A DNA stretch of 64,000 nucleotides. It comes from a virus. The stretch spans positions 35,939-99,938 of the IMG/VR virus record IMGVR_UViG_3300021519_000006. One strand, 5' to 3'. Position 1 is the stretch's first letter; the number at the start of each line of letters is the position of its first letter. Positions 12,643-26,819 of this stretch are shown in pieces. Below the pieces are notes generated by a model, which did not search any database, was not told the origin of the DNA, and saw only the letters and a program-made list of their open reading frames with translations. The translations under genes and the position numbers were made by a program.

Positions 12643-12705
12643 CTTACGGTCGCTGACGCTGGCGCGCTCGCTGTAGTTCGATTCTACAGGTCAGCACGCC
12701 GTAAG
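12643..12705 (+). ncRNA. tRNA-like minihelix (T-arm plus acceptor-like stem, no anticodon arm)
   Basis: CTGTAG-TTCGATT-CTACAG stacked on GCTGAC/GTCAGC, closed by CTTACGG/CCGTAAG. Confidence 0.45.
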
Positions 12706-12749
12706 GCTAGGGGCAGGATAGTCCTGTCCCTATGTTCAAAGGATACTAA

Positions 12750-13253
12750 ATGTCTACATTGACACTAAGTATGAAGGAACAACTCGCGCCAGTAGTGGCT
12801 ATCGAGTTGGCAGTTCTCAACGAGGGTGCTACAGCCTTCGGGATAGGCAAGGCGAAGGGTATCTTCAAGACCTACGCTGATGCGACCTTTTATGATGTGT
12901 ATGACCACATCACAAAGCAATCAGCCTCAACAGCAACCGCTGTTCTGTCTGGTCTCATCTCAGCACGCTACAACGTGCCTATCTCGTTCCTCGTACCTAT
13001 GCAAGACGACCTTGCCGAGGTATGGAGCACGTTCGACGCCACAACAGGCGACACCGAAGTTATGTTCGGTCGTCTGGTAGCACTCAAGGCTCGTCTCAAG
13101 GACGAGCGTGAGACAGCAGAAGCATCTGCTATTGCAGATGGTTCACTAGCGTCATCAAAGACCGTGACGCTAGTCAAGTCCCTTGGTAATCTCAAGACCA
13201 AGGGTGTTACATTCACCGAAGAGGAAAAGGCTGCGATTATCGCTGCCTTGTAA
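12750..13253 (+). CDS. hypothetical protein, first gene of rightward early region
   Basis: 167-aa ORF, AAGGA SD downstream of a hairpin. Confidence 0.8.
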   Translation: MSTLTLSMKEQLAPVVAIELAVLNEGATAFGIGKAKGIFKTYADATFYDVYDHITKQSASTATAVLSGLISARYNVPISFLVPMQDDLAEVWSTFDATTGDTEVMFGRLVALKARLKDERETAEASAIADGSLASSKTVTLVKSLGNLKTKGVTFTEEEKAAIIAAL

Positions 13254-13472
13254 TCGGTAATGGGTAGTGGCGGGGGCTCTATGTCCCCGCCTCTATCTAT
13301 GTCCATAGACATCTGTGGGCATAGATAGGGAGCAACTATCCCTATGGTAAGGGGAATCCGAATCAACTCGGTACGCAGGTGTATGGAAGTGAGGAGATGG
13401 TCAAACATCTCGCAGTAAAACTCCAACTGTTACACCGCCCCCGTAAGAGAAAGAATCTCGTGTCTTCTGTCG

Positions 13473-13521
13473 AAGAGACCCTAGTCAGCCCTTCAGCTAG
13501 TACTGGCTAGGGTCTCTTTTC
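13473..13521 (+). terminator. intrinsic terminator-like hairpin
   Basis: AAGAGACCCTAGTCAG/CTGGCTAGGGTCTCTT followed by T run. Confidence 0.7.
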
Positions 13522-13656
13522 ACATCCAAGCATAACTCTCATCATAGATAGATAACTCTCATCATAGTTAGTTAGGCTACTACAAATCTCACAAGTTGAG
13601 ACACCGAGAGTACAAGCAGGTCTGGGCTAGGGTGGGACTGCTGTTAGCAGATAGTC

Positions 13657-13780
13657 GGTGGAAGATACATAGTGGGGAGAATACTCCTGTAGTTACTAGA
13701 TACCACCATGGGCTCTATGCCTGTAAATGGGTGGCAAGTATGGAATACCACTATGTATCTCTCACTCTCTATCTGAGAGT
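13657..13780 (+). ncRNA. long-stem RNA cassette 1 (72-nt interior)
   Basis: 19-bp arms 13657-13675/13748-13766 with one A-C mismatch; alternative hairpin ACTCTC/GAGAGT before SD. Confidence 0.55.
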
Positions 13781-13795
13781 AGAAGGAGGACTGAT

Positions 13796-14221
13796 ATGGG
13801 ATCACCTATCAGACTTGAGTTCAACTGTTCTGAGTGCAAAGCAGATAACACCTTGCATTCCGGATGTACTCCTCGCATCAACGAGGACCGTATGGATTGG
13901 ATTCCATTCGAAGTGGATTACAGATTCACATTCAGATGTACTGAGTGTGAGTTACCTAATCTATTCCAAGGCACAAAGGAGTCAGGCTTTACCCCCGTGC
14001 CAACACAAACAAACCCCGCCGTAGTGCACGCTGTTCTTATCTTAGGCTGGCGTTACGGAGAGCCTGTACAACGTCTCTTTGGTATCTATCAAGACATAGA
14101 GATAGCCCATGCATCTGCTACCACGTGGATCAAGCGTAACCCCGGCAAGTATGCAGATGATGAAAAGAACGATGATGGTGAAAATGCAACATTCTACATT
14201 AGAGAGATGCCCCTACTATGA
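13796..14221 (+). CDS. hypothetical protein with two CxxC motifs
   Basis: AAGGAGG SD before ATG 13796, in frame with track ORF 13727. Confidence 0.7.
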   Translation: MGSPIRLEFNCSECKADNTLHSGCTPRINEDRMDWIPFEVDYRFTFRCTECELPNLFQGTKESGFTPVPTQTNPAVVHAVLILGWRYGEPVQRLFGIYQDIEIAHASATTWIKRNPGKYADDEKNDDGENATFYIREMPLL

Positions 14222-14484
14222 AAGGAGAAGTAATGTCAGACGAACTTATTACCCTCAAAATCGGTATATTCGATTTTACTGTGATTACGGATGCACTCAC
14301 TGATTGTGATTGTCTAAGTAAGGAATGTAAACGTCTTATCAGTAATTTCCAAGCGCAGAAAGAAGGAGAAGCAGTAAATACCTGCTTTGGATGTAAGAAT
14401 GCGGTCACTGTTGCTGAGGCTATCTATTATGAGACTTATCGTCTTTGTCCAAAGTGTTACAAGTATTGGGACCCCACGCCATGA
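14218..14484 (+). CDS. Cys-rich hypothetical protein
   Basis: CFGC...CPKC. Confidence 0.65.
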   Translation: MKGEVMSDELITLKIGIFDFTVITDALTDCDCLSKECKRLISNFQAQKEGEAVNTCFGCKNAVTVAEAIYYETYRLCPKCYKYWDPTP

Positions 14485-14588
14485 CAATACTTGATTACTT
14501 AGACCCAATGCAATCAGGTCTGCCTATCACTCTTATGTGGCTATCTATCTCTGCATCTATCTGTTATCTCCTCTTTAGTAAGAAGTAA
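14481..14588 (+). CDS. 35-aa single-TM peptide (absent from track)
   Basis: MTILDYLDPMQSGLPITLMWLSISASICYLLFSKK; ATGA overlap. Confidence 0.5.
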   Translation: MTILDYLDPMQSGLPITLMWLSISASICYLLFSKK

Positions 14589-14627
14589 TACACCAAAAGG
14601 ACCCCGCGAAATTTTACCGTGTGAAGT

Positions 14628-14835
14628 GGTGGAAGGCACATAGATGGTGGACCTATACCGTGAGGTGGCTAACTTAGTTGATGCTATTCAAGGTGTTGGA
14701 AGGAACCAATAACGGATTAATTTCTGGACGGTTGCCGACCCATTACTCTCCACAGTTCCCGCTGTAACAGTAGTGCCTTTGGAATGCCCATTACTAAGAC
14801 TATCTATGTGTCTCTCACTCTCCACAAGGAGAGTG
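14628..14835 (+). ncRNA. long-stem RNA cassette 2 (150-nt interior)
   Basis: 21-bp arms 14628-14648/14799-14819 with one A-C mismatch; alternative hairpin CACTCTCC-ACAA-GGAGAGTG. Confidence 0.6.
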
Positions 14836-14853
14836 CTATACAAGGAGGACAAA

Positions 14854-15033
14854 GTGTCATCCGACACAAACAACACACCCGACTGGGAATACATCAAGAA
14901 GCAAGGGATGCGAGTCAATAAGCATCTTCATAACCACTATAACGACCTAATGCACCGAGCAGCCTGCGACATCTGTATGGCCTTCTTCATCGGTGAAAAT
15001 TATGGCAAGTTGACTGAGGAGGAAAAACAATGA
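14854..15033 (+). CDS. hypothetical protein
   Basis: AAGGAGG SD before GTG 14854. Confidence 0.6.
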   Translation: MSSDTNNTPDWEYIKKQGMRVNKHLHNHYNDLMHRAACDICMAFFIGENYGKLTEEEKQ

Positions 15034-15200
15034 GAGGTTATCTATTCAGATCGTTGATTGCGCTAGTTGCACCTAACTACGCTCTTGACAAGGATAACTA
15101 TGGGCAGATTATCATCTACACCCATAAGAAAGAAGTTGATGATGATCGGTATGTAGAGATGGTCTCTGCAGACTTTGGAATATATGACAAGGAGGACTAA
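15030..15200 (+). CDS. 56-aa hypothetical protein (absent from track)
   Basis: GGAGG SD, ATGA and TAATG overlaps. Confidence 0.6.
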   Translation: MRGYLFRSLIALVAPNYALDKDNYGQIIIYTHKKEVDDDRYVEMVSADFGIYDKED

Positions 15201-15442
15201 TGCCTGACGACGTAACAGTTATCAGCGTAGGCACACACATCGAGTCCAATGGAGGAGATGTTCTAGCTTGTAAGCCGGGCAGTTACCGAAATACAACTAT
15301 TGTCCTGTGTTACTTACCACAGAACAAAGTAACCCCTTTCGTTGTACACACATACAACGAGACTCAAGGTATCTGCTTTCGAGGTCAATATGGTTTCACA
15401 CTTGAAGAAGCAATAACCGACTACAAGAACAGGAGAACATAG
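15200..15442 (+). CDS. hypothetical protein
   Basis: 80-aa ORF with AAGGAGG SD. Confidence 0.65.
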   Translation: MPDDVTVISVGTHIESNGGDVLACKPGSYRNTTIVLCYLPQNKVTPFVVHTYNETQGICFRGQYGFTLEEAITDYKNRRT

Positions 15443-15672
15443 TGTCCAACACAAACCCCCGCGCAGCACACATCTATAACCCCGAAGACGGTGGCACTAA
15501 CATGGAAATTGTCATCAGCCCCGATACTTGGTGGCACGCCGTCTGTAACGATGACATCAGGCTGACCAACAAGGAATACAACGAGCTAGACGATAGTGAA
15601 GTGGACTTGTGCCATCCCTGCGTCAAGAAAGCCAAGGAGGATGATCCCGATGGCTTTATCTACAATCTATAA
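15442..15672 (+). CDS. acidic hypothetical protein
   Basis: 76-aa ORF with AGGAG SD. Confidence 0.6.
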   Translation: MSNTNPRAAHIYNPEDGGTNMEIVISPDTWWHAVCNDDIRLTNKEYNELDDSEVDLCHPCVKKAKEDDPDGFIYNL

Positions 15673-15776
15673 AACCTGTACAACAACAATCACTACAACA
15701 ACCACAATAACAACAAAAACAACCCGCATTGTGCACGGAATTACCGTGCCTGTGCACATCCTAGAAGGGAATACGA

Positions 15777-16292
15777 ATGGCAACATCTATGAATACGCTC
15801 ACAGTAAGACGAGTTGATCTATTAGAGCAACTCGAAGAGCGTTACACATACATGACCCAAGAAAAGGTAAAGTATGAGAAAGCTGTGGAAAAGTTCCACG
15901 CTTTGACTAAGAAATATGATGCAGACTTAGAGAAGTGGGAAGCACGTGTGCCCACACTACTAGAAGGTATGGTTAGAGGGTCTGACATAGACTACTCACA
16001 TAACACAGAGAGATACGGCAGATACCAGTGGAATCGTGAAACTTGGAATGCAAGCATTAGTGTATCTCTCAACCGCGATGAAGTAACACGACTAATAGGG
16101 CCAGAGCCTACAAGACCAGAGGCTCCTGATACCCCCGAATTTTTACAACAGCGTAGATTAACTAGAGGTTATTCTGCTCCTCCAGCCCCATCATTATACG
16201 AAGCTGTATACCAAGCCATTGCAATCCTTAGTATTTCTAATGATGATGATGTTAAAGCTCAGATGTTCAACGACGTAATGTTGGCACTCTAA
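15777..16292 (+). CDS. coiled-coil hypothetical protein (paralogue of 17425-17859)
   Basis: N-terminal coiled coil, G..P..P linker, Y..(V/I)..AIA(I/L) C-terminal motif. Confidence 0.75.
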   Translation: MATSMNTLTVRRVDLLEQLEERYTYMTQEKVKYEKAVEKFHALTKKYDADLEKWEARVPTLLEGMVRGSDIDYSHNTERYGRYQWNRETWNASISVSLNRDEVTRLIGPEPTRPEAPDTPEFLQQRRLTRGYSAPPAPSLYEAVYQAIAILSISNDDDVKAQMFNDVMLAL

Positions 16293-16513
16293 TGAAACTA
16301 TTCTGTGATTACATCAACGATAAACAAGAAGCACGGTTCCAAGAGCACCTCACAGTGTGTGATGATCCCCAACACAAACAATCCACCATCCACATCCACC
16401 GCCTGATAGTAGACATATTCGACACGGACCGCATCAAATACCCACGATGGCAATACTGGATCGATAGCATCCTCGTATTCCTTAGATTGGACGGAACCAA
16501 TGGAAAATATTAA
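16292..16513 (+). CDS. hypothetical protein
   Basis: coupled ORF. Confidence 0.5.
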   Translation: MKLFCDYINDKQEARFQEHLTVCDDPQHKQSTIHIHRLIVDIFDTDRIKYPRWQYWIDSILVFLRLDGTNGKY

Positions 16514-16970
16514 AACACACATAGTTGAGTGTTCACGATGTCAAGCGCCCCAAGTATTCAGGAACGCACCGGGGTACATGGACTCAGACATACCAGTAGC
16601 ACTGGAACTATCCCTAGATGGTGGCTACGCAATGTTCGTAGACAATATCTACTACGTTGGTGACAAGAACCCATTGGAGTTCATGCTCTGTCACAAATGT
16701 GCCCACGAATTTACACAGTTTATGAACATACCCGAGACAACAGTAACTAGTTGGCATCCTAAAACAGATGATGCTTTCTGTAATGGTTGGACAATGCTAG
16801 GAAGCATGGAACGTGAGTTAGAGGTATTCAAACAAAAGCTTTACGATCTTGTATACATCAACGAACACACGATGATAGTGCCGTTTGATGACTACGCACA
16901 TAAAAAAGCACAGTTAGAAGAACTAATCCAACTACAAGAAGAAAGGATCAAAGAATGTACATCGAACTAG
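16500..16970 (+). CDS. Zn-binding hypothetical protein
   Basis: CSRC...GGY..FVD...LCHKCA. Confidence 0.7.
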   Translation: MENIKTHIVECSRCQAPQVFRNAPGYMDSDIPVALELSLDGGYAMFVDNIYYVGDKNPLEFMLCHKCAHEFTQFMNIPETTVTSWHPKTDDAFCNGWTMLGSMERELEVFKQKLYDLVYINEHTMIVPFDDYAHKKAQLEELIQLQEERIKECTSN

Positions 16971-17047
16971 ATATGTCTAGCGCAACAACTATGACAATAG
17001 TTCTAGCCATCGTTGTTGTAGTTATTGTATTCATACGACGTAAGTAA
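16955..17047 (+). CDS. 30-aa single-TM peptide (absent from track)
   Basis: MYIELDMSSATTMTIVLAIVVVVIVFIRRK with AAGGA SD. Confidence 0.55.
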   Translation: MYIELDMSSATTMTIVLAIVVVVIVFIRRK

Positions 17048-17052
17048 TCGTA

Positions 17053-17358
17053 TTGATAGGGCAGAAGACATACGCATACAGGCTGTTATTACATAGAGGC
17101 CTAGGAATTTAGTGGATGAGTTACGAGTCTGCTATTTTTACTAGACGGAATTGGTAGCACCAATGAGCGAACGACTGTAGTGCCAGAGATACCCTGCGGG
17201 CTTGCGAAAACCTATTACAGTACCTCGGTTGAATTTGGGGGATACCCCAAGTTAGTTGTACGAGTGCAAGAAGGCGCTTGTGAAAGGAGTCTCGTCGTAA
17301 TTCGACAGTAGTATGCGTATGTCCTCTGTCTTATCAACAGAGAAAGGAGATAAGACAG
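17053..17358 (+). ncRNA. long-stem RNA cassette 3 (231-nt interior)
   Basis: 27-bp arms 17053-17079/17311-17337 (2 G-U, 1 A-C); alternative perfect 10-bp pairing 17326-17335/17349-17358. Confidence 0.65.
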
Positions 17359-17424
17359 CACCAACACAAACAAACACCCCCACAGCCGTGCTGGGTGTCC
17401 CGTACCAATAGAGAAAGGGTTACC

Positions 17425-17859
17425 ATGGCAGCAACCAAGGTAATTGCAACAACTTGGGATAAAGCACATTTACTCAAGAAGCTAAATGACACACTCAAGC
17501 GTATGGACGCAGAAATAGTTGCATGGGAAAAAGATAATGCAACTCTTGAAAAGCGTCAAGAAGCATGGGAGAAAAAAGCAGTTGCTTGGGCTCTTAAAAA
17601 CATGCCCAAATCAAAAGATACAGACGCAAGTATGTATCACAACCGATTCCAATTGAACATCTCGTTTGATCTTCAATTGGCTACGGATGCTTTAGGTGAA
17701 CGTCCTACTCAAGAACGTAAACCACAATACAAAGAAGGTCATTACTCTGAACTTAATGATTATGACCAAATTGAAAATGCTATTGCTTTGATTGAAGGCT
17801 CAACTGACACTGAGTTTAAAATCAATACCACATCAGTGTGGGCATCTTTCATTCGATAA
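17425..17859 (+). CDS. coiled-coil hypothetical protein (paralogue of 15777-16292)
   Basis: start reassigned to MAATK after AAAGGG SD. Confidence 0.75.
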   Translation: MAATKVIATTWDKAHLLKKLNDTLKRMDAEIVAWEKDNATLEKRQEAWEKKAVAWALKNMPKSKDTDASMYHNRFQLNISFDLQLATDALGERPTQERKPQYKEGHYSELNDYDQIENAIALIEGSTDTEFKINTTSVWASFIR

Positions 17860-17971
17860 CGCTTAACGCGGTTGGTTTCTATAGTTCTTCCTGAGGTAAA
17901 AGAACTCCTCACCTAAGCATGTGAAGGATAAACTGCTTACCAACACAAACACTCACAAAGGACAACAAACT

Positions 17972-18190
17972 ATGCTACAAACCTTTGGTAAATACATTCG
18001 AGACAAGTATGGAAACTTCGTGTGGAAAGAAACACAGGTTAAACCTCCGTCATTAGATAACTCAACAGCAAAATTACTATTCATTGTAGAAGCACAGCTG
18101 TTTCACGGCTGTACCCGCAAAGAAGCAATGATGCTGTGGGAAGACGGCATCGATACTCTATACAACACAATAAGTGAGGAGGAACTATGA
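17972..18190 (+). CDS. hypothetical protein
   Basis: AAGGA SD before ATG 17972. Confidence 0.6.
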   Translation: MLQTFGKYIRDKYGNFVWKETQVKPPSLDNSTAKLLFIVEAQLFHGCTRKEAMMLWEDGIDTLYNTISEEEL

Positions 18191-18324
18191 AACTATGGTT
18201 ACTGATCGGACTAACAACTAACATCATCTCTATTTGGACTGCGCTGTATTGGCGTGAACGATATTGGGATGCAGAGCGTATGCGAATGTATCTTCGCAAG
18301 TTAGATGCACGAAATGTTAAATAG
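18187..18324 (+). CDS. 45-aa membrane peptide (absent from track)
   Basis: MKLWLLIGLTTNIISIWTALYW...; GGAGG SD, ATGA overlap. Confidence 0.55.
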   Translation: MKLWLLIGLTTNIISIWTALYWRERYWDAERMRMYLRKLDARNVK

Positions 18325-18664
18325 TCTCAACAACCTATCTACATACAATCCAGACAACTTCAAGTGGCAAGATAATGCAGCGTGCAAAGACTTGCCCGTA
18401 AGTATGTTCTACTACGATCACAATGAACGTGGTCCCGACAGAGATTACAGGGAGCGTACCGCGCTTGCTGTATGCAATACCTGCCCAGTCAAGGCAGTGT
18501 GTCTACAAGACGCAATTGACAGAAACGATACACACTCTATACAGGGTGGAACTACTCCAGTGATGCGTGGGCACAAGCTTCGTAGTGTGCCTGAGTATCC
18601 TATTGAAGTAGTTAGAGTAGAAATGGAGGAAACAAATGCGACTACGACATCGCAAACTAGCTAA
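18305..18664 (+). CDS. whiB: WhiB-family transcription factor
   Basis: WQDNAAC...CNTCPVKAVC...IQGGTT. Confidence 0.88.
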   Translation: MHEMLNSLNNLSTYNPDNFKWQDNAACKDLPVSMFYYDHNERGPDRDYRERTALAVCNTCPVKAVCLQDAIDRNDTHSIQGGTTPVMRGHKLRSVPEYPIEVVRVEMEETNATTTSQTS

Positions 18665-18941
18665 GCTCATAGAACGCAAGATGGTTGAGGAAGAAATTGA
18701 ACTCAATGATCTAGAATCACAGCACAGTCGTGCATACCATACTGGTGTAATTGATGGATTAGGTCAAGCCCTATTCCTTATTGCACCGGAACGTGCACGA
18801 CGCAATCCAATCAGCATCGTATGGTTTGATGAAGACTACGATGTGCCCCAACACAAACAATCACGCCTACAAGAAATCGACAGAGAACAAAGTTTCGACG
18901 TCAACCATTCAGCTCTGTTTGACACATCCGAGGCACGTTAA
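18636..18941 (+). CDS. hypothetical protein
   Basis: 101-aa ORF with GGAGG SD. Confidence 0.65.
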   Translation: MRLRHRKLAKLIERKMVEEEIELNDLESQHSRAYHTGVIDGLGQALFLIAPERARRNPISIVWFDEDYDVPQHKQSRLQEIDREQSFDVNHSALFDTSEAR

Positions 18942-19633
18942 TGCGTGTCTATGACTATGTCACAGGTGAGTTATGGCTCAAAGGTGGACAAAAGAAAATA
19001 GAACGACCCCTATATACACGCGGTGCTAGGCTATTTCAACGAGCCGATCACATTGCCGTAGCCCTTGGTTGGGCTCAATCATACGATGTGGTGTTGTTTT
19101 ACCCAGATGGCACCACAACTATTCAATGTCAAGCCAATGGTCATTGGAATCCTTTATGGAGTCAAGGAGTTAGAGCAATTATCCGTGACTTCTCAGGCTT
19201 ACACGACGTACATCAACGTAAGAATAAATGGTACATAGTGGAAGCCAATCCATCACGCACGCCACCAAAGATTCAAGGTTGCAGAATGTGCAAACGCACA
19301 GGTTTGGTAGACGTACAGTGTTGGGGTCCGCGCAGTTGTTACAACAGCATACCGTGCGAAGACCATCCCACAGCAGTACTCGACCCTAAGAACCCTCACG
19401 CAAGATGGCATGAAGCAGAACAATGTGAGCACAATAAAACTGCTAGGCACATGATGTACAGAGCAGATAAGTGTTATTCCTGTAGCGGTATGGGAATGCG
19501 CGACTACGGTAGTAAATTAGTTTCTCTTCAATGGGATGGTTTCCCAGTCCGATTGAGAGAAGGCAAGGTAATAAAGCAAGAACCAACCGAACTAGAGAAG
19601 AGGATAGCAAACTATGTCAAACCCAACAGTTGA
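18941..19633 (+). CDS. hypothetical protein with DnaJ-like CxxCxxxG motifs
   Basis: CRMCKRTG and CYSCSGMG. Confidence 0.7.
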   Translation: MRVYDYVTGELWLKGGQKKIERPLYTRGARLFQRADHIAVALGWAQSYDVVLFYPDGTTTIQCQANGHWNPLWSQGVRAIIRDFSGLHDVHQRKNKWYIVEANPSRTPPKIQGCRMCKRTGLVDVQCWGPRSCYNSIPCEDHPTAVLDPKNPHARWHEAEQCEHNKTARHMMYRADKCYSCSGMGMRDYGSKLVSLQWDGFPVRLREGKVIKQEPTELEKRIANYVKPNS

Positions 19634-20120
19634 GTATGACAGTTCAGCAACAATAAACACAGGAGCCACAGCAGAACAACCAGTAACAGCACGAAGAATA
19701 CTGAGTAGCGGTGGTATCCCTGAGAACTTAGTAACAACTTCAAGAGCTAGTAAAAACTACAGAGATGCCGTGTTAGCAGACCTATTACTTAATGTTGAAC
19801 CTGGGCAACCAACTTCAACAATTGTTTTAGATACATTGCGAACTGCAGTCCGAGCATCACAAGATGGAAGCATTGACTTGCAGGTATACACCGAGTATCT
19901 TGCAGCTTTAGCCTTTGCTTGGGGTGACAAAGAACTAGCTGCCGTTACGATCATGCGTAGTAAGCCTGAGTATGCTGCAGTATCAACCCATACTATGAGC
20001 ATTGTATCTGCCATAACTAAACAGATGCCTAGCCCATTTTACTTAAGCTTGCTGGTATCGCAAGGGCCAGCAGCTTCAGACGCATGGTTACAAGAACAGT
20101 CTTCCCACTTCCCTAACTAA
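19614..20120 (+). CDS. DUF4192-like helical protein
   Basis: RDA.L...LAALAFAWGD.ELA......PEY. Confidence 0.55.
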   Translation: MSNPTVEYDSSATINTGATAEQPVTARRILSSGGIPENLVTTSRASKNYRDAVLADLLLNVEPGQPTSTIVLDTLRTAVRASQDGSIDLQVYTEYLAALAFAWGDKELAAVTIMRSKPEYAAVSTHTMSIVSAITKQMPSPFYLSLLVSQGPAASDAWLQEQSSHFPN

Positions 20121-20478
20121 CGCCAACACAAACAAACCAGCCTATTAGACGGTCAGCGGGAGCCATTTATGACGAAAACTGCCTTCCTAAGAACTGGTAT
20201 GTCGTTGGTAAATGCTGCAGAACACAGAGAAGTAGTCTGCAACATACTTGATCAAACCCAAGCCGGAAACAAGACGGCACCAGCACGCGTGGATGGTTAA
20301 ACGGGACCAGTTAGTCTCACCAACCGCCACCTGCCAGTCGGACCTGAGTCGCCCGTAGTTGCTAATGCATCCAGTCCCTGTACCACTTCCTACGTAATGT
20401 GTTCAACTCAGCCCCTAGAGGGCACGTCATATTGGCGTGCTCTCTAGGTTTACCTACTACAACAAAGGAGATAGACAT

Positions 20479-20733
20479 ATGTGTGAAGCATGTGAGAACA
20501 ACGACGATGAAGACTTCTCATCACAAGATTTTAATTTTAATAGTCTTAATGATGAAGAAAAAGAAGAGTTCTTTGAGTACCTCAGTAAGCAGATGAACCT
20601 CGTAATAAATAAAGCCGAATCACACGGCGTGTTGTTTGACCTAATTACGGAGTGGCCTCGAGGCAAGGTAGTAGCATTCGAGATGGCTACCGTATTAGAG
20701 AACCGCGTCTTAAATGACGACGATGAGGAGTAA
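20479..20733 (+). CDS. acidic hypothetical protein
   Basis: AAGGAG SD before ATG 20479; D/E-rich ends. Confidence 0.65.
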   Translation: MCEACENNDDEDFSSQDFNFNSLNDEEKEEFFEYLSKQMNLVINKAESHGVLFDLITEWPRGKVVAFEMATVLENRVLNDDDEE

Positions 20734-20830
20734 CTAAGTTTCCTCTGCGCAAGCAGAGGGATGCTACCGATAGTCGGTAGTAGTTGTCGCAAGACAACAA
20801 CGATTCCAATACCTAGAAGGGGTAAGTTAT

Positions 20831-22270
20831 ATGGATATCGCAATATTCACAGAGTCATACACACCAAGCATGGGGGCTAAGCGCCGTCAGGTGCTAATAA
20901 CTCCGCATGGTGACGATGTACGCATCTACTCACGTGAGACAGATGGGACCAAGGGTCCCCACAATAAGTGGGAAGAAACAGACTTCGATGGTCTCACTGG
21001 ACAGATTGACAGCGACGAGCAACTCACTCGTACGCCTGTTGCTGTGTACGTTACAGCGACAGATGAAGAAGCTATGACTGCTAAGGGCTATTCCCCAGTA
21101 CTCGGCACCAAAGCATGTCAAGCACATACCAAGGCTGCACTCAACGTAGATCCAAGTTCATTCTTGGAACGTGTGTGCGAGTTGTATGAGCAAGTTACAT
21201 CGCAAGATGTAGCGTTGAGTGAGTACATCATCGACAACCGTCGTGGTTCTGGTTCTACTGTGCCTTTGGTAACTATGCCAACACAAACAACTCCAGCCCC
21301 ACAACTAAACCAACACGTATTAGATAAGTTTGAAATTAAAATGGAATCTAATACTAACAACGGTTCGGTTATCATGGCGTCACTAGCATCAGTGCCACGC
21401 ATTGAGCTAGCCAAGCGCTATGTTCATCGTAAAGTCTTCGAAGTAGAAGACTTCAAGGTGTTCGATCATGCTCGTGCCAACAACATCAACGTACTTATTT
21501 ACGGCCCTACTGGTCCAGGTAAGACAACGTCTGTTGAAGCATGGGCTGCTGAGCGTGGCCTACGTATGGCTACCGTATCTGGTAATGCTTCTATGGAGCC
21601 AAGCCAGATGACTGGTAAGTTCGTATCCGATGGCAACGGTTCGTTTGCATGGATTGATGGCCCTGTTACTGACGTAGTCCGTAACGGTGGTGTCTTGCTT
21701 CTTGATGAGGTTAATTTCATCAGTCCTAAAATCTATACCGTCTTGTATTCCCTACTTGACGGACGTCGCATGATTACATTGCTTGATCATCATGGCGAGA
21801 CTATTGAGGCGCACAAAGACCTCACTATCTTCGCAACTATGAATCCGGATTACATCGGCACAACGTCGTTGAACTTCGCATTCCGCAATCGCTTCGACAT
21901 CCAAATCCCTTGGGATTACGATGACAAGGTTGAAGAGAAATTAGTTTCATCTAAGTCTCTTCGTGTCTTAGCGAAGCAATTACGTACTGAAGCAGCCAAG
22001 GGTCAGTACGAGACTCCAATCTCAACCAATATGTTGATGGAGTTCCACCATTTCGTAGACGCATTGGGTTATGAGTTCGCAGTTGAGAACTTCATCGCTC
22101 ACTTCTCTACGGATGAACAGCCAAGCGTTCGCTTGGTGTTTCAGACACACGAATACAATATCAAAGGTGACTTTGGTATTGAGATTCCTATGCCTGAACA
22201 AGCAGCAGAAGGACAGTCAATTGAAGAGAAGTTGACTGAGTGGGCTGGCAATCTTGCCGGTCAAGTATAA
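20831..22270 (+). CDS. MoxR/CbbQ/CobS-like AAA+ ATPase
   Basis: GPTGPGKT, WIDGP, LLLDEVN, ATMNPDY, FRNRF. Confidence 0.9.
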   Translation: MDIAIFTESYTPSMGAKRRQVLITPHGDDVRIYSRETDGTKGPHNKWEETDFDGLTGQIDSDEQLTRTPVAVYVTATDEEAMTAKGYSPVLGTKACQAHTKAALNVDPSSFLERVCELYEQVTSQDVALSEYIIDNRRGSGSTVPLVTMPTQTTPAPQLNQHVLDKFEIKMESNTNNGSVIMASLASVPRIELAKRYVHRKVFEVEDFKVFDHARANNINVLIYGPTGPGKTTSVEAWAAERGLRMATVSGNASMEPSQMTGKFVSDGNGSFAWIDGPVTDVVRNGGVLLLDEVNFISPKIYTVLYSLLDGRRMITLLDHHGETIEAHKDLTIFATMNPDYIGTTSLNFAFRNRFDIQIPWDYDDKVEEKLVSSKSLRVLAKQLRTEAAKGQYETPISTNMLMEFHHFVDALGYEFAVENFIAHFSTDEQPSVRLVFQTHEYNIKGDFGIEIPMPEQAAEGQSIEEKLTEWAGNLAGQV

Positions 22271-22282
22271 GAAAGGTAAACC

Positions 22283-24214
22283 ATGTATAACGAAGAGTTA
22301 GACGATGGTTATCGTTACAGGGAAGCCAGAGATGAAGAAGCACAAGAACGTGCTGTCCGACTCAATGCACTGTGCCGTGTTTACGAACAAGGTGACCGTG
22401 TATTAACTGGCGACCCAGTCATCGTAAATGTGATGCCGGATGGCCCCGCACCAGCGTGGTCAGACGGTGCCGCTATCTACATCAATCTTGATCAGATTGA
22501 GGACATGGACCTTGAGACATTAACTCAAGTTACTGGCCTCAACTATCATGAGTTAAGCCATCACTTGTACTCGCCCCGTAAGGGAACGACGTTCATGCAA
22601 TGGGTTATAGAAAATGGTCAGATTCAAGCTACAAATATTCTCGAAGATCAACGTATCGAAACATTATTTGTAGCACGCTATCCAGCTGTTGCTTCATACC
22701 TTACAGCCATGGTTTCTAGGTGGTTAGGTAAAGATGAAGATGGCATGCATGGTAACTACATCTGTATACGCGGACGTCGTTACCTACCTGTTGAGATTCG
22801 TCAAGCGTTCCGTGATGAGTTCGCTTTCCCAGATGTAATCCCAGCAGCTATTGACATCATCGATCAGTATCGTCTCTTAGCATTTCCTCGTGACTATGAC
22901 AAGGGCAAGGAACTGATTGAGCGATTCACCAATGAGGTACTGATTCCTATGGGCATCAAAGATGACCACACACATCAGGGTGGTCCCAATGGTTGCGGTC
23001 AACGCATGCCCGTAAGTAAGGGTCGACCTGAGCCCGGCAAAGCTCAAGAGAAAGACTCTGATCGTGCCAAGGGTATGGGTACAGCAGAAGCTCCGTGGTA
23101 TCCAAAACCTAAGCAAGCTCCAACACAAACACCCACCAACGACGCCGATAAACCAATTGGCAGCAATGATGATGGTGATGGTGATGGTGATGGTGATGAT
23201 CCATATAGCAAACCGTTACAACCTATTACTACAGAACAAGCACTAGATATACGCGACAAGGGTGTAGACCATACGCCAGCGTCTACCGCAGGTTCTGGTC
23301 ACGTTGATAGTCTCGGCGGTATTCCTAAGAATATCAATGACATGCTCAACGATGCTATTGATAATGTCCTTGCACGCAAGGATGTTCAAGCAGACATCAA
23401 AGCCAAGCAGAAAGTTATTGTTGGTGGAGATGGTAAGCATGATGACATTACTAAGAAGGGTAAGTTCGACAAGACTTCCGTTCCCAACGAATCCATCATT
23501 GCATACCGCAAATTCGCTCAAGAGTTACAACGTTTACGCGATGACATGGAACCTACGTGGGATAAAGAAACACCCACCGGTAGGCTTAATGTTCAACGTG
23601 TTATCCGAGGCTGTGAGATTGATGCAGCCTTCGATCGTTGGGATGAGGGCGACGATGGATGTGATATTGAGGCCGTCATCCTAGTGGATCGATCAGGATC
23701 AATGTCCAGTCAACAGAACGATAAGAAGGCTTCCATCGCCTGCTGGACTATCAAGCGTGCTCTTGAGTCAATTCAAGCGCCCGTTACTGTCTATGCCTTT
23801 GATGACGCAGCTGAGGTTGCTTACTCCCGCAAAGAGTTAGCAGACAAGACTCAGTACAAGTTCATCTACGGCAACGGCGGTACTGAACCATACCCAACAC
23901 TGTTAGTTGCAGAGCAGTTACTTATGTCTTCTCGCAAGAAGAACAAAATGCTGTTCATGGTAACTGATGGTGTGTTCGACTCCCAGAAAAATGATGTAAT
24001 TATTGAGCGTATCGGTAAGCGTGGCATTCTCACAGCCATGACGCTGATTATGACTGACAGTGATTACAAATACTATGTGGATGATCGAGGTCAAGATCCA
24101 AAGCAATTCCATCATAATGCTGAGGTTTTTGCTCGTATCAACAATGCCAGTGACTTACTGCCGTTTGCTAAGCAAGTAGTTACATCCGCAATCAAAAAGC
24201 GTGGAAGACGCTAA
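22283..24214 (+). CDS. VWA-domain protein with N-terminal HExxH (CobT-like partner of the AAA+)
   Basis: HELSH, NILEDQRIE, MIDAS DRSGSM, GGT, VTDG. Confidence 0.88.
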   Translation: MYNEELDDGYRYREARDEEAQERAVRLNALCRVYEQGDRVLTGDPVIVNVMPDGPAPAWSDGAAIYINLDQIEDMDLETLTQVTGLNYHELSHHLYSPRKGTTFMQWVIENGQIQATNILEDQRIETLFVARYPAVASYLTAMVSRWLGKDEDGMHGNYICIRGRRYLPVEIRQAFRDEFAFPDVIPAAIDIIDQYRLLAFPRDYDKGKELIERFTNEVLIPMGIKDDHTHQGGPNGCGQRMPVSKGRPEPGKAQEKDSDRAKGMGTAEAPWYPKPKQAPTQTPTNDADKPIGSNDDGDGDGDGDDPYSKPLQPITTEQALDIRDKGVDHTPASTAGSGHVDSLGGIPKNINDMLNDAIDNVLARKDVQADIKAKQKVIVGGDGKHDDITKKGKFDKTSVPNESIIAYRKFAQELQRLRDDMEPTWDKETPTGRLNVQRVIRGCEIDAAFDRWDEGDDGCDIEAVILVDRSGSMSSQQNDKKASIACWTIKRALESIQAPVTVYAFDDAAEVAYSRKELADKTQYKFIYGNGGTEPYPTLLVAEQLLMSSRKKNKMLFMVTDGVFDSQKNDVIIERIGKRGILTAMTLIMTDSDYKYYVDDRGQDPKQFHHNAEVFARINNASDLLPFAKQVVTSAIKKRGRR

Positions 24215-24245
24215 CCAACACAAACAAAGACAAAGGAGCAACAAA

Positions 24246-24437
24246 ATGTACGTTATATTCGATAGCTTAACAGAAACACTTATAGGCCCGTTCAATGATG
24301 AGGAAAGCGCAAGCATGTTCTTGCTATATGCCTCCGACGAATTGGCAGATGGTGGTGTAAACCTATCCGTTGAGTGCGTATCTGAGCCAGCTGAATGGGC
24401 CCAAGATAACGCCCCCGCACTAATGGCGTCGTTGTAA
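24246..24437 (+). CDS. small acidic hypothetical protein
   Basis: AAGGAG SD before ATG 24246. Confidence 0.6.
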   Translation: MYVIFDSLTETLIGPFNDEESASMFLLYASDELADGGVNLSVECVSEPAEWAQDNAPALMASL

Positions 24438-24783
24438 TGAGTAAGCAAGAGCTAAAGTACAGCGAAGAACTCTTGCGCATAGATATGGAACGTCTTGCTC
24501 AAGACAGAGTAAAAGCAAAAGCCTTATTAATCTCAAAAGGTGCCGACGATGTCTTAGAGATGTTAGGGCTGCAAGACGATGAGTTGTAGTCATTGCGGCT
24601 CCCCCATCTACGGCAAGTTTATAGAACTTCGCGTAGACAATGGTCTTAGGATTATTGAGTTTCACGATAACCCTAAGGAATGTTACATCAAAGAAGTTAG
24701 ATACAAACGTAGCTTTGACAAAGCTATACGACAAGAAATTGTGCTCAACGGTGGGTACATGGAAGACTAGAGGAGGAAACAAA

Positions 24784-25260
24784 ATGACAACAATAACTAG
24801 GAGAGAAGCGTGCGAATTAGTACGTGAATCTATTGGTAAAGAACAATTGCTTGAGGAAGACGTCAAGCGTATTATCTATGCTGTTAATAATGACCTACAA
24901 GTAAGAGATTTCTTAATGGGCATACCTATGCATTATTCAATGGTGGAATGCGCCACACTATTAAAGAACATAGTTGCTGTAGCGGATCCGCAAGAAGCGG
25001 TACCCTTTGCAGCAGTCCTTGCTGCGTACGCATATGAAATGGATGATCATCAAACTGTTAAAGACTCTATTTCATTCTCTATAAGTGTTAATCCTACATA
25101 TTCATTAACTCTCTTGTTAATGAGAGTAATAGCATCTGGTTGGCCTAAAGAAGCCTTTAAAAAGATGCGTGAAGAACTTCACCTTAAGGTTATGGCATCC
25201 TGCTATAGCCCAGAAGGTGATGAAGCTATCCCACTACAAAGTAAGGAGGAAAACAAATGA
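24784..25260 (+). CDS. DUF4192-like helical protein
   Basis: VRDFL...P.AAVLAA.AYE......NPTYSL..LL.R....GWP. Confidence 0.65.
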   Translation: MTTITRREACELVRESIGKEQLLEEDVKRIIYAVNNDLQVRDFLMGIPMHYSMVECATLLKNIVAVADPQEAVPFAAVLAAYAYEMDDHQTVKDSISFSISVNPTYSLTLLLMRVIASGWPKEAFKKMREELHLKVMASCYSPEGDEAIPLQSKEENK

Positions 25261-25417
25261 AAGGCGGTATATCACTAGCAGACATGCAAGAACTCAACGA
25301 TCTTATGAATCAATTCAATACATTTGAAGAGACTAAAGAAGCAGTTGAGTCTCGCTTCCCCGGCATCACAGCTATACGTACGGAAACCGGAATCTCTATA
25401 ACATCAGAGGAGGAATA

Positions 25418-25642
25418 ATGTCAACAATGTGCGAAGAATGCAGGTGCACAGTGTTTGGTGACGAAGCATGTGGCAATGGGTGTGGGTGTTGCGGAGGAGG
25501 TCCAAATACTGTAATCTGGAAATCCGTCGTAACAAAAGAAATGGTCGAGGGTTGGAGTGACGATGAGATTGAAATGCTCGTTACAGACCTAGACGATGCC
25601 GTCATGGCAACGTTACAAGACTATGAAGGACACGACCACTAA
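25418..25642 (+). CDS. Cys-rich/acidic hypothetical protein
   Basis: GGAGG SD; CEECRC...CGNGCGCC. Confidence 0.6.
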   Translation: MSTMCEECRCTVFGDEACGNGCGCCGGGPNTVIWKSVVTKEMVEGWSDDEIEMLVTDLDDAVMATLQDYEGHDH

Positions 25643-25671
25643 CCCACCAACACAAACAAGATCGGAGCACT

Positions 25672-25863
25672 ATGGCAGACGATCTAATCTATAAGGTTCG
25701 CATTGTGTACGAAGTGAGCCTAGCCAAATGGCGTATAGACGAAGATGATAACGACTGGTGTCTATGGGTCTTTGACAGGAATTTAGGAGAGTGGATCCCC
25801 ACCAATAAACTAAATAGACCTGGCGAAGATGTAGAAATTGTAGACATCAAGTTTATAAAGTAA
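25672..25863 (+). CDS. hypothetical protein
   Basis: GGAG SD. Confidence 0.55.
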   Translation: MADDLIYKVRIVYEVSLAKWRIDEDDNDWCLWVFDRNLGEWIPTNKLNRPGEDVEIVDIKFIK

Positions 25864-25976
25864 GGGAGGTGAAGCCTCCGGACGCACTCCGGAGGTCTCA
25901 TCAATGGCGTTAACTCTTAGTTCTAAAAGAGATTACGGCATAAGTATATCCCCTCAAATCAAAGAAAGGAACAACT

Positions 25977-26234
25977 ATGGCCATATGGGCAGTAGTTAAT
26001 ATAAAACTACGGGATAAACACATACGCAAACTCGTATCAGCACTAGAAGGTGCGGGTCTTGAGGTATCTATTACACCGGGTAAGAAGCACGTAAGGGTAA
26101 GAAACCCTGATACAGGCAAAATAGTCTTCTTCGGTAGCCAATCGTTGGGAGACTTTAGAGCTGCAAAAAATATCAAACGAGACCTAAAGATGGTAGGGTT
26201 TGACCTATCCGAACATGGAATCAAACTAGGATAA
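25977..26234 (+). CDS. HicA-like protein
   Basis: L..AG..V...GKKHVRV...G...A.KN..RDL. Confidence 0.65.
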   Translation: MAIWAVVNIKLRDKHIRKLVSALEGAGLEVSITPGKKHVRVRNPDTGKIVFFGSQSLGDFRAAKNIKRDLKMVGFDLSEHGIKLG

Positions 26235-26243
26235 GGAAACAAT

Positions 26244-26483
26244 ATGGCAAAAACCAATTACTTCTTCGCAGTTAAGAAGAACCTAGATAAGGGTGGCGCA
26301 TGGCTAGCAATTGTTAGCGATGAGATTAACGGCCCTATTCTAAAAGCAGCTGCATTTTCCAGTGCTGCACCAGCAAAACGTTGGGCAGCTGAACAAATTG
26401 ATCGTAGTCGTTTACCGTGGGAAGTATCAGAAGACGGTAAATCTATGACAGCAGTTGCGCAATTCAAAGAGCCAAAGGAATGA
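26244..26483 (+). CDS. hypothetical protein
   Basis: 79-aa ORF with TAAGGA SD. Confidence 0.65.
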   Translation: MAKTNYFFAVKKNLDKGGAWLAIVSDEINGPILKAAAFSSAAPAKRWAAEQIDRSRLPWEVSEDGKSMTAVAQFKEPKE

Positions 26484-26590
26484 TTATGGACTTTGAGACA
26501 GTGTTGCCAATGAAAACAGTTAACGACATCATTAAAGAAGTTAAAGAAACAAAAGAATGCGATTGCGGTAACTGTACGTGTAAATAAAAC

Positions 26591-26624
26591 ATTAAGCCCC
26601 TCACCTTGCGGTGGGGGGCTTAAT
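26591..26624. terminator. bidirectional terminator at convergence of the two arms
   Basis: ATTAAGCCCCTCACC-TTGC-GGTGGGGGGCTTAAT with T-rich flanks on both strands. Confidence 0.8.
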
Positions 26625-26643
26625 TGTTTGTGTTGGGCGCGGG

Positions 26644-26778
26644 CTAAGCCTCGCTATCTTCACTTTCATCTTCTAGGAACATCGACTCGATATCCTCTAG
26701 GTCTTCTTCATCCATATTCAACTCTTCAAGGTCATCCTCAAAGTCTTCAAATAGGTCAGGACTCAATTCATCTGACAT
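26644..26778 (-). CDS. 44-aa extremely acidic peptide (absent from track)
   Basis: MSDELSPDLFEDFEDDLEELNMDEEDLEDIESMFLEDESEDSEA; GGGAG SD. Confidence 0.6.
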   Translation of the reverse strand: MSDELSPDLFEDFEDDLEELNMDEEDLEDIESMFLEDESEDSEA

Positions 26779-26819
26779 GCGTGTCTCCCAGTACTAGTAG
26801 GTGTAGAAATCGTACACTA

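Follow-up and report, generated by a model that had tools for sequence, protein, structure and literature searches.

An oriented word of C and A repeated along one gene block of lake actinophages: a candidate site for the control of transcription elongation

The repeated word and its sites

The DNA analysed here (the window) is a stretch of 64,000 nucleotides from a 99,938-bp phage genome. It contains a block of plus-strand genes that converges on a minus-strand ribonucleotide-reductase operon. Within this block an exact word of 11 to 13 letters, CCAACACAAAC followed by AA and made of C and A only, occurs again and again. The core of 11 nt is followed by an A (97%) and then by a second A (65%). 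Tolerated variants are nearly all transitions (Y1, R3, Y7). Genes were called with a crude ad hoc script.

Exact copies of CCAACACAAAC begin on the plus strand at 14000, 15446, 16369, 17361, 17940, 18848, 20123, 21278, 23120, 24215, and 25647, and a one-mismatch copy, CCGACACAAAC, at 14861 (plus strand) completes the 12 copies of the block. A sequence-only reading of the window had listed the same 12 positions, and every one of them was reproduced. It had also described the word as usually extended and as read in several frames; 9 of the 12 block copies do reach the final AA, and the intragenic copies use all three frames, reading PTQT, PQHKQ, or S(N/D)TN. Its list of copies outside the block span was correct for the exact copies at 1487 (plus), 5118 (minus), and 26626 (minus), and overlooked a one-mismatch copy at 8768 (minus).

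Altogether, the window holds 16 matches with at most one mismatch. In 100 dinucleotide-preserving shuffles the mean was 1.44 and the maximum 5, so that none reached the observed count. An exact count over the full phage genome ranks the word first among all 11-mers, with 14 forward and 3 reverse copies. The block has about 0.95 copies per kb, and the rest of the genome 0.06. The earlier proposal of a signal belonging to this region thus held up against the rest of the genome and against shuffled sequence, and it held up in orthologous regions as well, where the word is kept in 75 related loci.

The sites have varied genetic settings. Site 1 (CCAACACAAACAA, 14000–14012) lies within an ORF at 13796–14221, in a linker, PVPTQTNP, that separates a Cys-rich N-terminal part from a hydrophobic segment. 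Site 2 (14861–14873), the variant CCGACACAAAC in which the third letter is changed from A to G, covers codons 3–6 of an ORF starting with GTG at 14854; it is located 43 nt past an inverted repeat (14629–14648/14799–14818). Site 3 (15446–15456) covers codons 2–5 (SNTN) of the ORF 15442–15672. Site 4 (16369–16381), within the ORF 16292–16513, is read in the PQHKQ frame, as is site 7 (18848–18860) within a conserved 101-residue gene at 18636–18941. In orthologues of the latter gene (L025, L021), the word is found at the same place in the PTQT frame.

Sites 5 and 6 follow potential RNA structures, as had been observed before. Site 5 (17361–17373) is non-coding, upstream of an ORF at 17395/17425–17859, and begins 24 nt past the 3' arm of a 27-nt inverted repeat (17053–17079/17311–17337). 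Site 6 (17940–17950) directly adjoins the 3' side of a conserved structured element (17872–17938), and an ATG at 17972 comes 32 nt downstream of its first base.

Three further sites follow stop codons closely, again in agreement with the earlier description. The intergenic site 8 (20123–20135) begins 2 nt after the stop of the ORF 19614–20120 and is followed by an ATG at 20169, 46 nt downstream. Site 11 (24215–24227) abuts, with a gap of 0 nt, the TAA stop (24212–24214) of a VWA (CobT-like) gene, and a Shine-Dalgarno sequence and an ATG at 24246 come 31 nt downstream. Site 12 (25647–25659) lies 4 nt past the stop of the ORF 25418–25642, with an ATG at 25672, 25 nt downstream. The remaining two sites are deep within genes. 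Site 9 (21278–21290) encodes linker residues 150–153 (PTQT) of an AAA_5 (MoxR/CobS-like) protein whose gene spans 20831–22270, and nearly all relatives have a copy here. Site 10 (23120–23130) is found in a low-complexity linker of the VWA gene (22283–24214).

Among the extra copies, the exact one at 1487–1497 (plus strand) is antisense to the large-terminase gene; a 90% relative has CCGACACAAAC at this place, and more distant relatives have no copy. The exact copy at 5118–5128 (minus strand) is in sense orientation in the gene of a 992-residue protein (APAPTQTPRK, residue 855 of 993), and the one-mismatch copy CCGACACAAAC at 8768–8778 (minus strand) is in sense orientation in the minus-strand gene 8541–8837.

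Conservation in related phages

The carriers of the word are a family of uncultured lake phages of actinobacteria, with genomes of about 100 kb, and the 75 loci that keep it come from IMG/VR. The 57 loci that were retrieved together with the AAA ATPase contain 368 forward and 48 reverse copies. No locus has more than one reverse copy, and it always lies at the terminator that ends the block, 3–4 nt from the hairpin; the orientation bias of the window is present in the relatives too. Copies in the block always point the way its genes are transcribed, and the one opposite copy points along the converging operon. In three genomes (G003–G005), no copy lies elsewhere than in the block or at its end. 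G002 and G005 have a word-free stretch of about 3.5 kb at the start of the block. The block had no Megablast match among GenBank phages, Rfam returned nothing for positions 12000–27500 at E<=1, and literature matches to the word and its complement were primers only.

In orthologous genes the word keeps its place although the frame in which it is read differs, and so selection acts on the nucleotides and not on the protein. This had been claimed from the window, and the relatives bear it out further. PTQT is invariant amid an otherwise variable AAA linker, and in L226 a Pro has changed to Ser while a permitted variant, TCAACACAAAC, is retained. In one lineage (L222, L234) the word itself has shifted, to CCAAC-GT/AT-AAAC; in L222 the internal copy of the AAA gene has moved to another place in the gene and is still present. 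Since 75 loci keep the word unchanged, oriented, and within the block, one factor appears to read the whole block, much as the sequence-only reading had suggested.

Extra copies outside the block number 4–6 per genome in three genomes, compared with 0.07 expected. About 10 are sense and 5 antisense, most are not conserved, and no model explains them cleanly. A scan of IMG/VR for a 14-mer form outside the family yielded mostly chance single matches. The outsiders with several matches (L032, L043, L076, L077) proved to be Pro/Thr-rich coding repeats, which are a different thing.

Spacing and flanking sequence

Copies are spaced regularly in 15 of the 16 loci tested, with a coefficient of variation of 0.16–0.47 against about 0.85 for random placement. 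The exception is L015 (0.56, p=0.21). The AAA gene, 1.4 kb long, and the VWA gene, 1.9 kb long, both hold internal copies.

The word is anchored to the stop codon before it. In 68 of 238 non-redundant sites (29%) the upstream stop ends 0–5 nt before the word, where 4.2 would be expected. The next start codon is not at a fixed distance but 22–60 nt away. At 41 of 79 sites, compared with 15.5 in controls, this range holds a start codon with a Shine-Dalgarno sequence; in the larger set the figure is 91 of 238 compared with 28. Of the 238 sites, 82 are deep inside long ORFs.

The 5' edge of the word is sharp, and its 3' side fades into a G/C-rich stretch. Positions +14 to +22 downstream are rich in C and G and depleted of T (about 7%), a bias that hints at some requirement outside the word at the stage when polymerase has just moved past it. 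Predicted structure upstream of the word is marginally raised (p=0.04), and the 60 nt downstream have less structure than in controls. Folding predictions leave the word itself unpaired (84%), and stems close around it less often than they do when its flanks are shuffled.

The inverted copy at the terminator

The plus-strand block and the minus-strand operon meet at a GC-rich bidirectional terminator hairpin (26591–26624). The single inverted copy of the word (26626–26636, minus strand) is located 7 nt past the stop of an ORF at 26644–26778 and 3–4 nt before this hairpin; its plus-strand complement forms the T/G-rich tail of the terminator. All 48 related loci that extend this far have exactly one such copy. 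In most loci the last forward copy is about 1.0–1.3 kb away from it.

The same arrangement occurs in a second, independent context. In L192, L195–L197, L199, and L236, an internal copy also stands 3–4 nt upstream of a terminator hairpin, as the copy at the block end does. In the motif zone of the window, a consensus scan gave no internal plus-strand terminator-like site beyond one weak 7-bp stem at 24848–24869. A looser and poorly specific scan found strong internal hairpins that do not adjoin the word in some relatives. Upstream of the motif zone the window has a separate hairpin terminator together with a different repeated element (AACTCTCATCATAG).

The sequence-only reading had listed the copy at 26626 but had not recognized it as a conserved part of the bidirectional terminator; nor had it picked up the regularity of the spacing, the tightness with which copies abut upstream stop codons, or the lineage with an altered word.

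Search for a reader

Candidate readers were sought among the phage proteins. Conserved proteins of the block could not be assigned to a Pfam or PHROG family. The 99.9-kb genome encodes neither a tyrosine nor a serine integrase or recombinase, and no repressor-like Pfam or PHROG match was found among the scanned proteins, a subset of the ORFs. The phage shows no sigma-70 region 2 (Sigma70_r2) and no NusG NGN domain or paralog. A T7-like RNA_pol domain was absent from proteins of at least 800 residues; a genome-wide search with PF00940, which its own control did not validate, gave no T7-like polymerase match; and the DxDGD polymerase signature does not occur in called genes outside a low-complexity stretch. 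The 1047- and 992-residue proteins had no sequence match in the PDB.

Two proteins and one RNA partner were considered and set aside. A 156-residue protein has a weak PPR-like match (E=3e-4), in which one segment of about 50–75 residues (roughly 48–123) was matched over and over to the repeats of a synthetic repeat protein. Because a single segment was matched repeatedly, and largely outside the conserved part, the match is treated as spurious. For a Cys-rich protein of 230 residues, all Atlas neighbours were below threshold. As for an antisense partner encoded by the phage, the only conserved complement of the word is the terminator copy, and the pairing fails in L226, where the forward sites have A and the terminator copy G at position 3.

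On the host side, a sample of 401 Actinomycetota genomes showed no enrichment of the word; most have 0–1 copies, like the reversed-word control. This tally is independent of the unpublished G056 and G128. In Actinomycetota genomes with at least 5 matches, the word is not in rRNA or in rRNA-bearing loci.

Comparison with known systems

The closest known systems are the stoperators, the start-associated sequences of Cluster K, and the CA-rich iRAPs, and the word is a member of none of them. Stoperators belong to Cluster A mycobacteriophages, where oriented 13-mers stop elongation; they are known for L5 gp71 and the TipsytheTRex repressor (PMC9283540). Like the word, they are asymmetric sites of about 13 bp, dispersed in many copies, oriented with transcription, and often at gene junctions; one set serves a large part of an actinophage genome, and the consensus drifts between lineages. 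The stoperator analogy drawn earlier is thus apt for site length, asymmetry, and orientation. It does not extend to the genetic context. The word occurs in a phage without a recognizable repressor among the scanned proteins and, since no integrase was found, without a sign of lysogeny. It is confined to one block instead of being genome-wide, has a third of its copies within genes, is regularly spaced, and is nearly invariant across the whole family; stoperators, by contrast, diverge along with the immunity groups.

Start-associated sequences are found in Cluster K mycobacteriophages, and their function is still unknown (PMC3203893; PMC12699233). They too are asymmetric 13-mers, present roughly 2–19 times and only in the non-structural part of the genome. 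They share one orientation, apart from one opposite copy located away from gene starts, and they are conserved across subgroups, precede unrelated genes, and are absent from the host genomes checked. However, they have a Shine-Dalgarno core, are located 3–7 bp before the start codon, and are almost never inside ORFs. The word has no G, is found 22–60 nt before starts or deep in genes, is anchored to stops, and is paced at about 1 kb.

In E. coli, iRAPs are CA-rich elements of nascent RNA that bind RNA polymerase and induce Rho termination; they relieve interference between convergent genes, curb antisense transcription, and act in untranslated stretches and at the ends of ORFs (PMC6847712). 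The word is likewise C/A-rich on the transcribed strand, with a putative cis action on the nascent transcript, and its copies at the convergent junction and after stop codons match these settings. The difference is that iRAPs are a loose CA-rich motif, defined by SELEX and Rho dependence in E. coli, while the word is an exact 11–13-mer in phages of an actinobacterial host.

Two other analogies from the sequence-only reading fare worse. For nut/boxA sites there is no boxA-like sequence, no conserved hairpin or flanks, and no NusG paralog. A translational enhancer of the GcvB type fails on the conserved intragenic copies, on the kilobase pacing, and on the genomes in which all forward copies are intragenic.

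A possible role in transcription elongation

The model tentatively preferred here, at somewhat less than an even chance, is that the word is a polar cis-acting site controlling transcription elongation by termination, pausing, or antitermination. That transcription is the process, which way the effect goes, and what kind of reader acts are inferences from the anatomy described above. In this model the DNA from about 13.6 to 26.6 kb of the window would be one long transcription unit under the control of the word, which would be read in the direction of transcription only. It could be read during the passage of RNA polymerase, either on the non-template strand or on the nascent RNA. Alternatively, a protein bound to the asymmetric DNA site could be met head-on by the polymerase. 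One copy would be needed for roughly every 1–1.4 kb, so that long genes would hold the word in linkers that tolerate it. Intergenic gaps would have it immediately behind the upstream stop codon. The opposite-strand copy would end the converging operon just before the shared terminator hairpin.

As to the sign of the effect, we lean towards a "stop" function, in which factor-dependent pausing or termination would shut the block within a kilobase and guard the convergent junction. Such an action would resemble that of stoperators or of the CA-rich iRAP elements, which bind RNA polymerase and trigger Rho. With the opposite sign, the word may re-load an antiterminator. Known processive antiterminators need one loading site and not one per kilobase.

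Several points count against elongation control. Terminators inside an operon of the phage's own need a reason, and timing, for example, is an assumption. If the roadblock were a protein on the DNA directly after a stop codon, the polymerase would stall before reaching that stop. Relatives with internal hairpins away from the word, the word-free first 3.5 kb or so in G002 and G005, and the extra copies in both orientations outside the block also speak against it.

A more specific version is rather unlikely to be right in full. It proposes that a family of lytic freshwater actinophages times or insulates a putative early operon by conditional stops spaced a kilobase apart, which host RNA polymerase and Rho would recognize directly on the nascent transcript. 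The word would then be an exact, high-affinity iRAP-like element, and the copy at the junction would shield the operon from antisense read-through.

Other explanations

The excess of start codons with Shine-Dalgarno sequences 22–60 nt downstream fits an mRNA element for translation or message stability, an unstructured C/A-rich leader before selected genes. It might serve ribosomes as a standby or enhancer site, or it might be bound by a protein that represses translation or protects the message. Folding predictions leave the word unpaired, with enclosing stems fewer than expected; it is always sense inside the block, and the Cluster K sequences set a precedent for a start-linked word (PMC3203893). 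Such an element is unlikely all the same, given that about a third of the sites are deep in long ORFs, the most conserved copy (in the AAA linker) among them, and that both forward copies are intragenic in L022, L023, and L027. The word also keeps its distance to the stop codon before it rather than to the start codon after it, its kilobase spacing has no translational rationale, and the minus-strand copy precedes a terminator and not a gene. Processing of the RNA would account for the sharp 5' edge abutting stop codons and for a unit size near 1 kb: cleavage at that edge by a sequence-specific endoribonuclease, encoded by phage or host, would leave each unit with the same unstructured leader. 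The region has long double-stranded stems resembling RNase III sites, and the block has a weak HicA-like ORF. Yet the intragenic copies would have the conserved AAA and VWA messages cut in every relative, and a cut at the minus-strand copy just before the terminator would be purposeless, which makes processing very doubtful.

Two further explanations place the function in the DNA. The phage 23-bp promoters of T7 are read by a polymerase that the phage encodes, and the sets of class II/III type resemble the present sites in being exact, co-oriented, about one per kilobase, and partly within coding sequence. A phage-specific promoter or promoter core, to which an adaptor would redirect host RNA polymerase for about one start per kilobase, would suit the sharp 5' edge with gradual 3' decay into a G/C-rich stretch and the frequent position upstream of genes; the word-free first unit of the block could encode the adaptor, and WhiB-like proteins are encoded in the block. 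It is nevertheless quite unlikely. The searches described above revealed no sigma factor, T7-like polymerase, or DxDGD signature, there is no -10-like TANNNT at a fixed distance, the downstream region is depleted of T, and the shortest spacings leave a leader of only about 12 nt. Moreover, the conserved minus-strand copy would fire into a terminator hairpin 3–4 nt away. A DNA-level site unrelated to transcription is improbable; it could be a short universal linker or crossover site for cassette exchange between co-infecting relatives, or a polar site for replication, a nuclease, or translocation. Homology between relatives often breaks near copies (17358/17361, 18841–18843, 23112–23131, 24202), and RNA contigs of relatives, from one metatranscriptome run that records neither transcript ends nor strand, join at 20122. 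Gene content between copies varies among relatives, extra copies in both orientations far exceed expectation, and one lineage changed its whole set together. Against this, many of the breakpoints are simply fast-evolving linkers, no tyrosine or serine recombinase is encoded, and second-order selection for exchangeability is unlikely to hold about 370 exact sites where AAA identity is only 53%. A Chi-like site would have to be over-represented in the host chromosome, and the 401 sampled Actinomycetota genomes, which need not include the host, showed no such excess. Strict co-orientation with transcription, which includes the opposite-strand copy, is not predicted either.

Significance

Few regulatory features of actinophage genomes are understood as poorly as dispersed oriented words of the stoperator or start-associated type, and 14 years after their description the start-associated sequences still have no assigned function. 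The present family is an unusually clean case, with about 370 sites in 57 loci, exact and periodic, and with a clear anatomy of stop-codon anchoring, terminator adjacency, and one inverted copy. It includes a natural specificity variant (CCAAC-GT/AT-AAAC in L222 and L234), and several of the models give sharp and cheap predictions. If the reader is the host polymerase or Rho, the word would be a portable part for transcription control in low-GC actinobacteria, for which, to our knowledge, genetic tools are currently lacking. If the kilobase-spaced conditional stops exist, they would be the first natural RNA words binding RNA polymerase to serve as a timing device in a phage.

Phage genome and gene layout

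The window covers bases 35939-99938 of a 99,938-bp IMG/VR virus record (IMGVR_UViG_3300021519_000006), which comes from lake-water metagenomes. The phage encodes a large terminase, a portal, collagen-like fibres, a DNA polymerase, helicases, a ribonucleotide reductase (26820-28850, minus strand) and a tRNA-Asn(GTT) (52470-52542, minus strand). It also carries a WhiB gene (18305-18664) and encodes a DUF4192 protein; these two suggest that the host is an actinobacterium of about 44% GC. The minus strand carries nearly all genes. The plus-strand exceptions are a block at about 12750-26500, which includes the WhiB gene, and a small block at 38179-41397.

Within the larger block lies a conserved module (18636-24437, plus strand), present in all or nearly all of 19 related loci retrieved from IMG/VR with its VWA protein (59-90% identity). 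Besides AAA_5 (MoxR/CobS-like) and VWA (CobT-like) proteins, the module encodes smaller ones: one of 101 aa (18 of the 19 loci), a Cys-rich one of 230 aa with CxxCxGxG motifs, one of 168 aa and an acidic one of 63 aa. In 14 of the 19, a gene for an 84-aa protein separates the 168-aa and AAA_5 genes. None of the module's small proteins received a Pfam or PHROG assignment. A 156-aa protein at 16500-16970 (plus strand) has two CxxC pairs in a zinc-ribbon-like arrangement. Its similarity to a synthetic PPR protein is weak (E=3e-4), confined to one repeat-like segment, and probably spurious.

Beside the reductase gene lies a queuine tRNA-ribosyltransferase/DpdA-like gene (28895-30391, minus strand; PHROG 887, E=5e-56), which suggests 7-deazaguanine modification of the phage DNA; the top strand of the word contains no G. 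Elsewhere in the genome, at 19214-20812 and so not in the window, lies the gene for a tail-fibre-like protein that combines an Mtd N-terminal domain with collagen repeats (locus L029:1217-2812, minus strand). Mtd is a target of diversity-generating retroelements.

Copies of the word

The word, CCAACACAAAC in phages outside one lineage (L222/L234), occurs on the plus strand at 14000-25657 in 11 exact copies and one with a single mismatch. All positions listed in the sequence-only reading proved correct on renewed search. Beyond this span, exact copies are found at 1487 (plus), 5118 (minus) and 26626 (minus), and a further one-mismatch copy at 8768 (minus). The word is the commonest 11-mer in the whole genome, and none of 100 shuffles approached its copy number.

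In three genomes (G000-G002), copies outside the block are rare, yet at 4-6 per genome they far exceed the 0.07 expected under Markov models of order 1-5. About 10 are sense and 5 antisense, and they mostly lie at non-orthologous places and are not conserved between relatives. The exact copies span genome positions 4057-95428, for instance window 1487 and 5118, 14069 in G001 and 21234 in G002. One 359-aa gene (genome 18016-19095) has gained a copy at differing positions and orientations in two relatives.

Conservation and selection on nucleotides

The word is conserved in orthologous regions, being the top k-mer in nearly all related loci. Alignment of the AAA ATPase gave 57 loci (42-97% identity), in which the pattern YCRACRYAAAC occurs 368 times forward and 48 times in reverse, the reverse copy never more than once per locus. 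Nine loci have no reverse copy; eight of them stop short of its position, and the other one is L239, a distant locus of high GC. All copies in three complete relatives, G003-G005, lie within the block or at its end. The word is absent from L239 (IMGVR_UViG_3300045970_000027, 64% GC), which at 42% identity is the AAA relative furthest from the rest. That locus carries seven copies of a 13-mer inverted repeat with arms TTCACA and TGTGAA around a central C or G, four as TTCACACTGTGAA and three as its complement; together they resemble a set of classical operators.

Selection had been proposed to act on nucleotides rather than on the encoded peptide, and the relatives bear this out. At the same place in the gene for the 101-aa protein, the word is read in different frames, giving PQHKQ here and PTQT in two relatives (L025 and L021). 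The PTQT of the AAA protein stays invariant amid an otherwise variable linker; in one relative (L226) the proline has become serine while the allowed variant TCAACACAAAC is kept. Single-mismatch variants on the sense strand comprise 73 transitions and 12 transversions, with hot spots at C1>T (47), C7>T (20) and A3>G (5). At C2, C5 and C11, transitions were never seen and transversions number three in total.

A position matrix was built from 96 non-redundant instances, with the 11 core positions fixed by the search pattern itself. It holds no information 5' of the first C. Past the core, position +12 is A in 90-97%, and the stretch from +14 to +22 is rich in C/G and depleted of T.

The L222/L234 lineage carries mainly CCAAC-GT/AT-AAAC, also in its terminator copy. 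Given this changed form, the reader of the word would be either encoded by the phage lineage or different with the host. Candidate readers on the phage side are the 101-, 230-, 168- and 63-aa proteins of the module, the WhiB of the block and a SpoVS protein (43369-43650).

Spacing and stop codons

The copies are paced. In 15 of 16 tested loci, the coefficient of variation of the gaps is 0.16-0.47, where random placement would give about 0.85 (p<0.05 in each of the 15, <0.01 in nine); the exception is L015 (0.56, p=0.21). The mean gap is 1.05-1.5 kb in most loci and about 2.2 kb in two (L016 and L017), and the minimum about 0.45-0.6 kb.

Many copies directly follow a stop codon. Among 238 non-redundant sites, 68 lie 0-5 nt behind the end of an upstream ORF that is 50 codons or longer, against a control expectation of 4.2, and at 30 the ORF ends exactly at the word. 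The distance to the next start codon varies from 22 to 60 nt. Of the 238 sites, 82 are deep within ORFs. The long AAA and VWA genes have internal copies; in the L222 AAA gene the copy is relocated but still present. L022, L023 and L027 each have two forward copies, both of them within genes.

Terminators and other repeats

A GC-rich hairpin stands where the block converges with the reductase operon, and the reverse copy always lies 3-4 nt from it. Read on its own strand, this copy comes after the operon's last stop codon. A subgroup of relatives also has a strong hairpin 3-4 nt after one internal site. A consensus scan of the motif zone of the window found no plus-strand terminator-like site other than a weak 7-bp stem at 24848-24869.

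Upstream of the motif zone, a hairpin-plus-T terminator (13473-13518) ends the first, one-gene unit. The repeat AACTCTCATCATAG occurs singly in the strand-switch gap (12475-12488) and as a tandem pair just past this terminator (13534-13547 and 13554-13567), and probably serves both transcription units as promoter or operator. The zone that carries the word begins past the second occurrence of this repeat.

At 17872-17942 (plus strand) lies a conserved element, about 70 nt long, that many relatives share and that has a three-helix consensus fold. Five base pairs show compensatory changes, such as CAC/GTG versus GTC/GAC, and some relatives have an extra inserted hairpin. It has no match in Rfam and seems to be a previously undescribed structured RNA within the block; in some genomes only, the word lies 3' of it. 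Three long inverted repeats (17053-17079/17311-17337, 13648-13675/13748-13775 and 14629-14648/14799-14818) have related arms of 20-28 nt, 72-231 nt apart. They could form long dsRNA stems, such as sites of RNase III-type processing; alternatively, they could be cassettes.

Possible functions

The word may well be a polar elongation-control site, taking that class as a whole. In this model, something would move along the template with transcription and need the word about once per kilobase. The reading is suggested because copies are co-oriented on both strands, paced without regard to gene boundaries, placed after stop codons and next to terminator hairpins, with a compositional requirement just downstream. 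Within the class, we lean towards a conditional stop signal, since the copy that closes the converging operon then makes sense and the two known precedents are of this type, Cluster A stoperators working on DNA (PMC9283540) and CA-rich iRAPs through Rho on the nascent RNA (PMC6847712). A re-loading site for an antiterminator is possible. The nut/boxA analogy drawn from the sequence did not hold up: the word is probably not such a site, as neither a boxA-like sequence, a conserved hairpin nor a NusG paralog was found. An immunity-type stoperator is also improbable, since the phage encodes no integrase of either family.

An element acting on mRNA translation or stability is fairly unlikely. The word is probably not a pure translational enhancer, a reading that leaves intragenic copies, pacing and stop-codon anchoring unexplained. 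It is unlikely that the word is a phage-specific promoter. A host-type or T7-type promoter is probably not the answer either, as a -10 element is lacking and one of the conserved copies points into a terminator; neither sigma-70 region 2 nor a DxDGD motif was found in the phage, nor a T7-like polymerase domain in any large protein. A recombination or other DNA-metabolic site seems quite unlikely. Neither enrichment nor an rRNA location of the word was seen in a sample of 401 Actinomycetota genomes, which may speak against a Chi-like site or a host-RNA mimic; two of these genomes are unpublished, and the result stands without them. The chance of an RNA processing site is slight. A target of a phage antisense RNA is also doubtful, as the sole conserved complement is the terminator copy and its pairing fails in L226.

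Comparison with known systems

In overall genomic behaviour, the word is closest to the start-associated sequence of Cluster K mycobacteriophages (PMC3203893). Each is an asymmetric 13-mer, restricted to the non-structural genome part and found in one orientation with a single opposite copy. Both are absent from the host genomes examined and have no known function (PMC3203893; for Cluster K, still so in PMC12699233). The word differs in lacking the positional feature that defines the Cluster K sequence, and it also lacks the genetic context that defines stoperators. It can therefore be placed, as a variant of its own, among the dispersed oriented regulatory words of actinophages. Its distinguishing features are the kilobase pacing, the stop-codon anchoring and the terminator copy.
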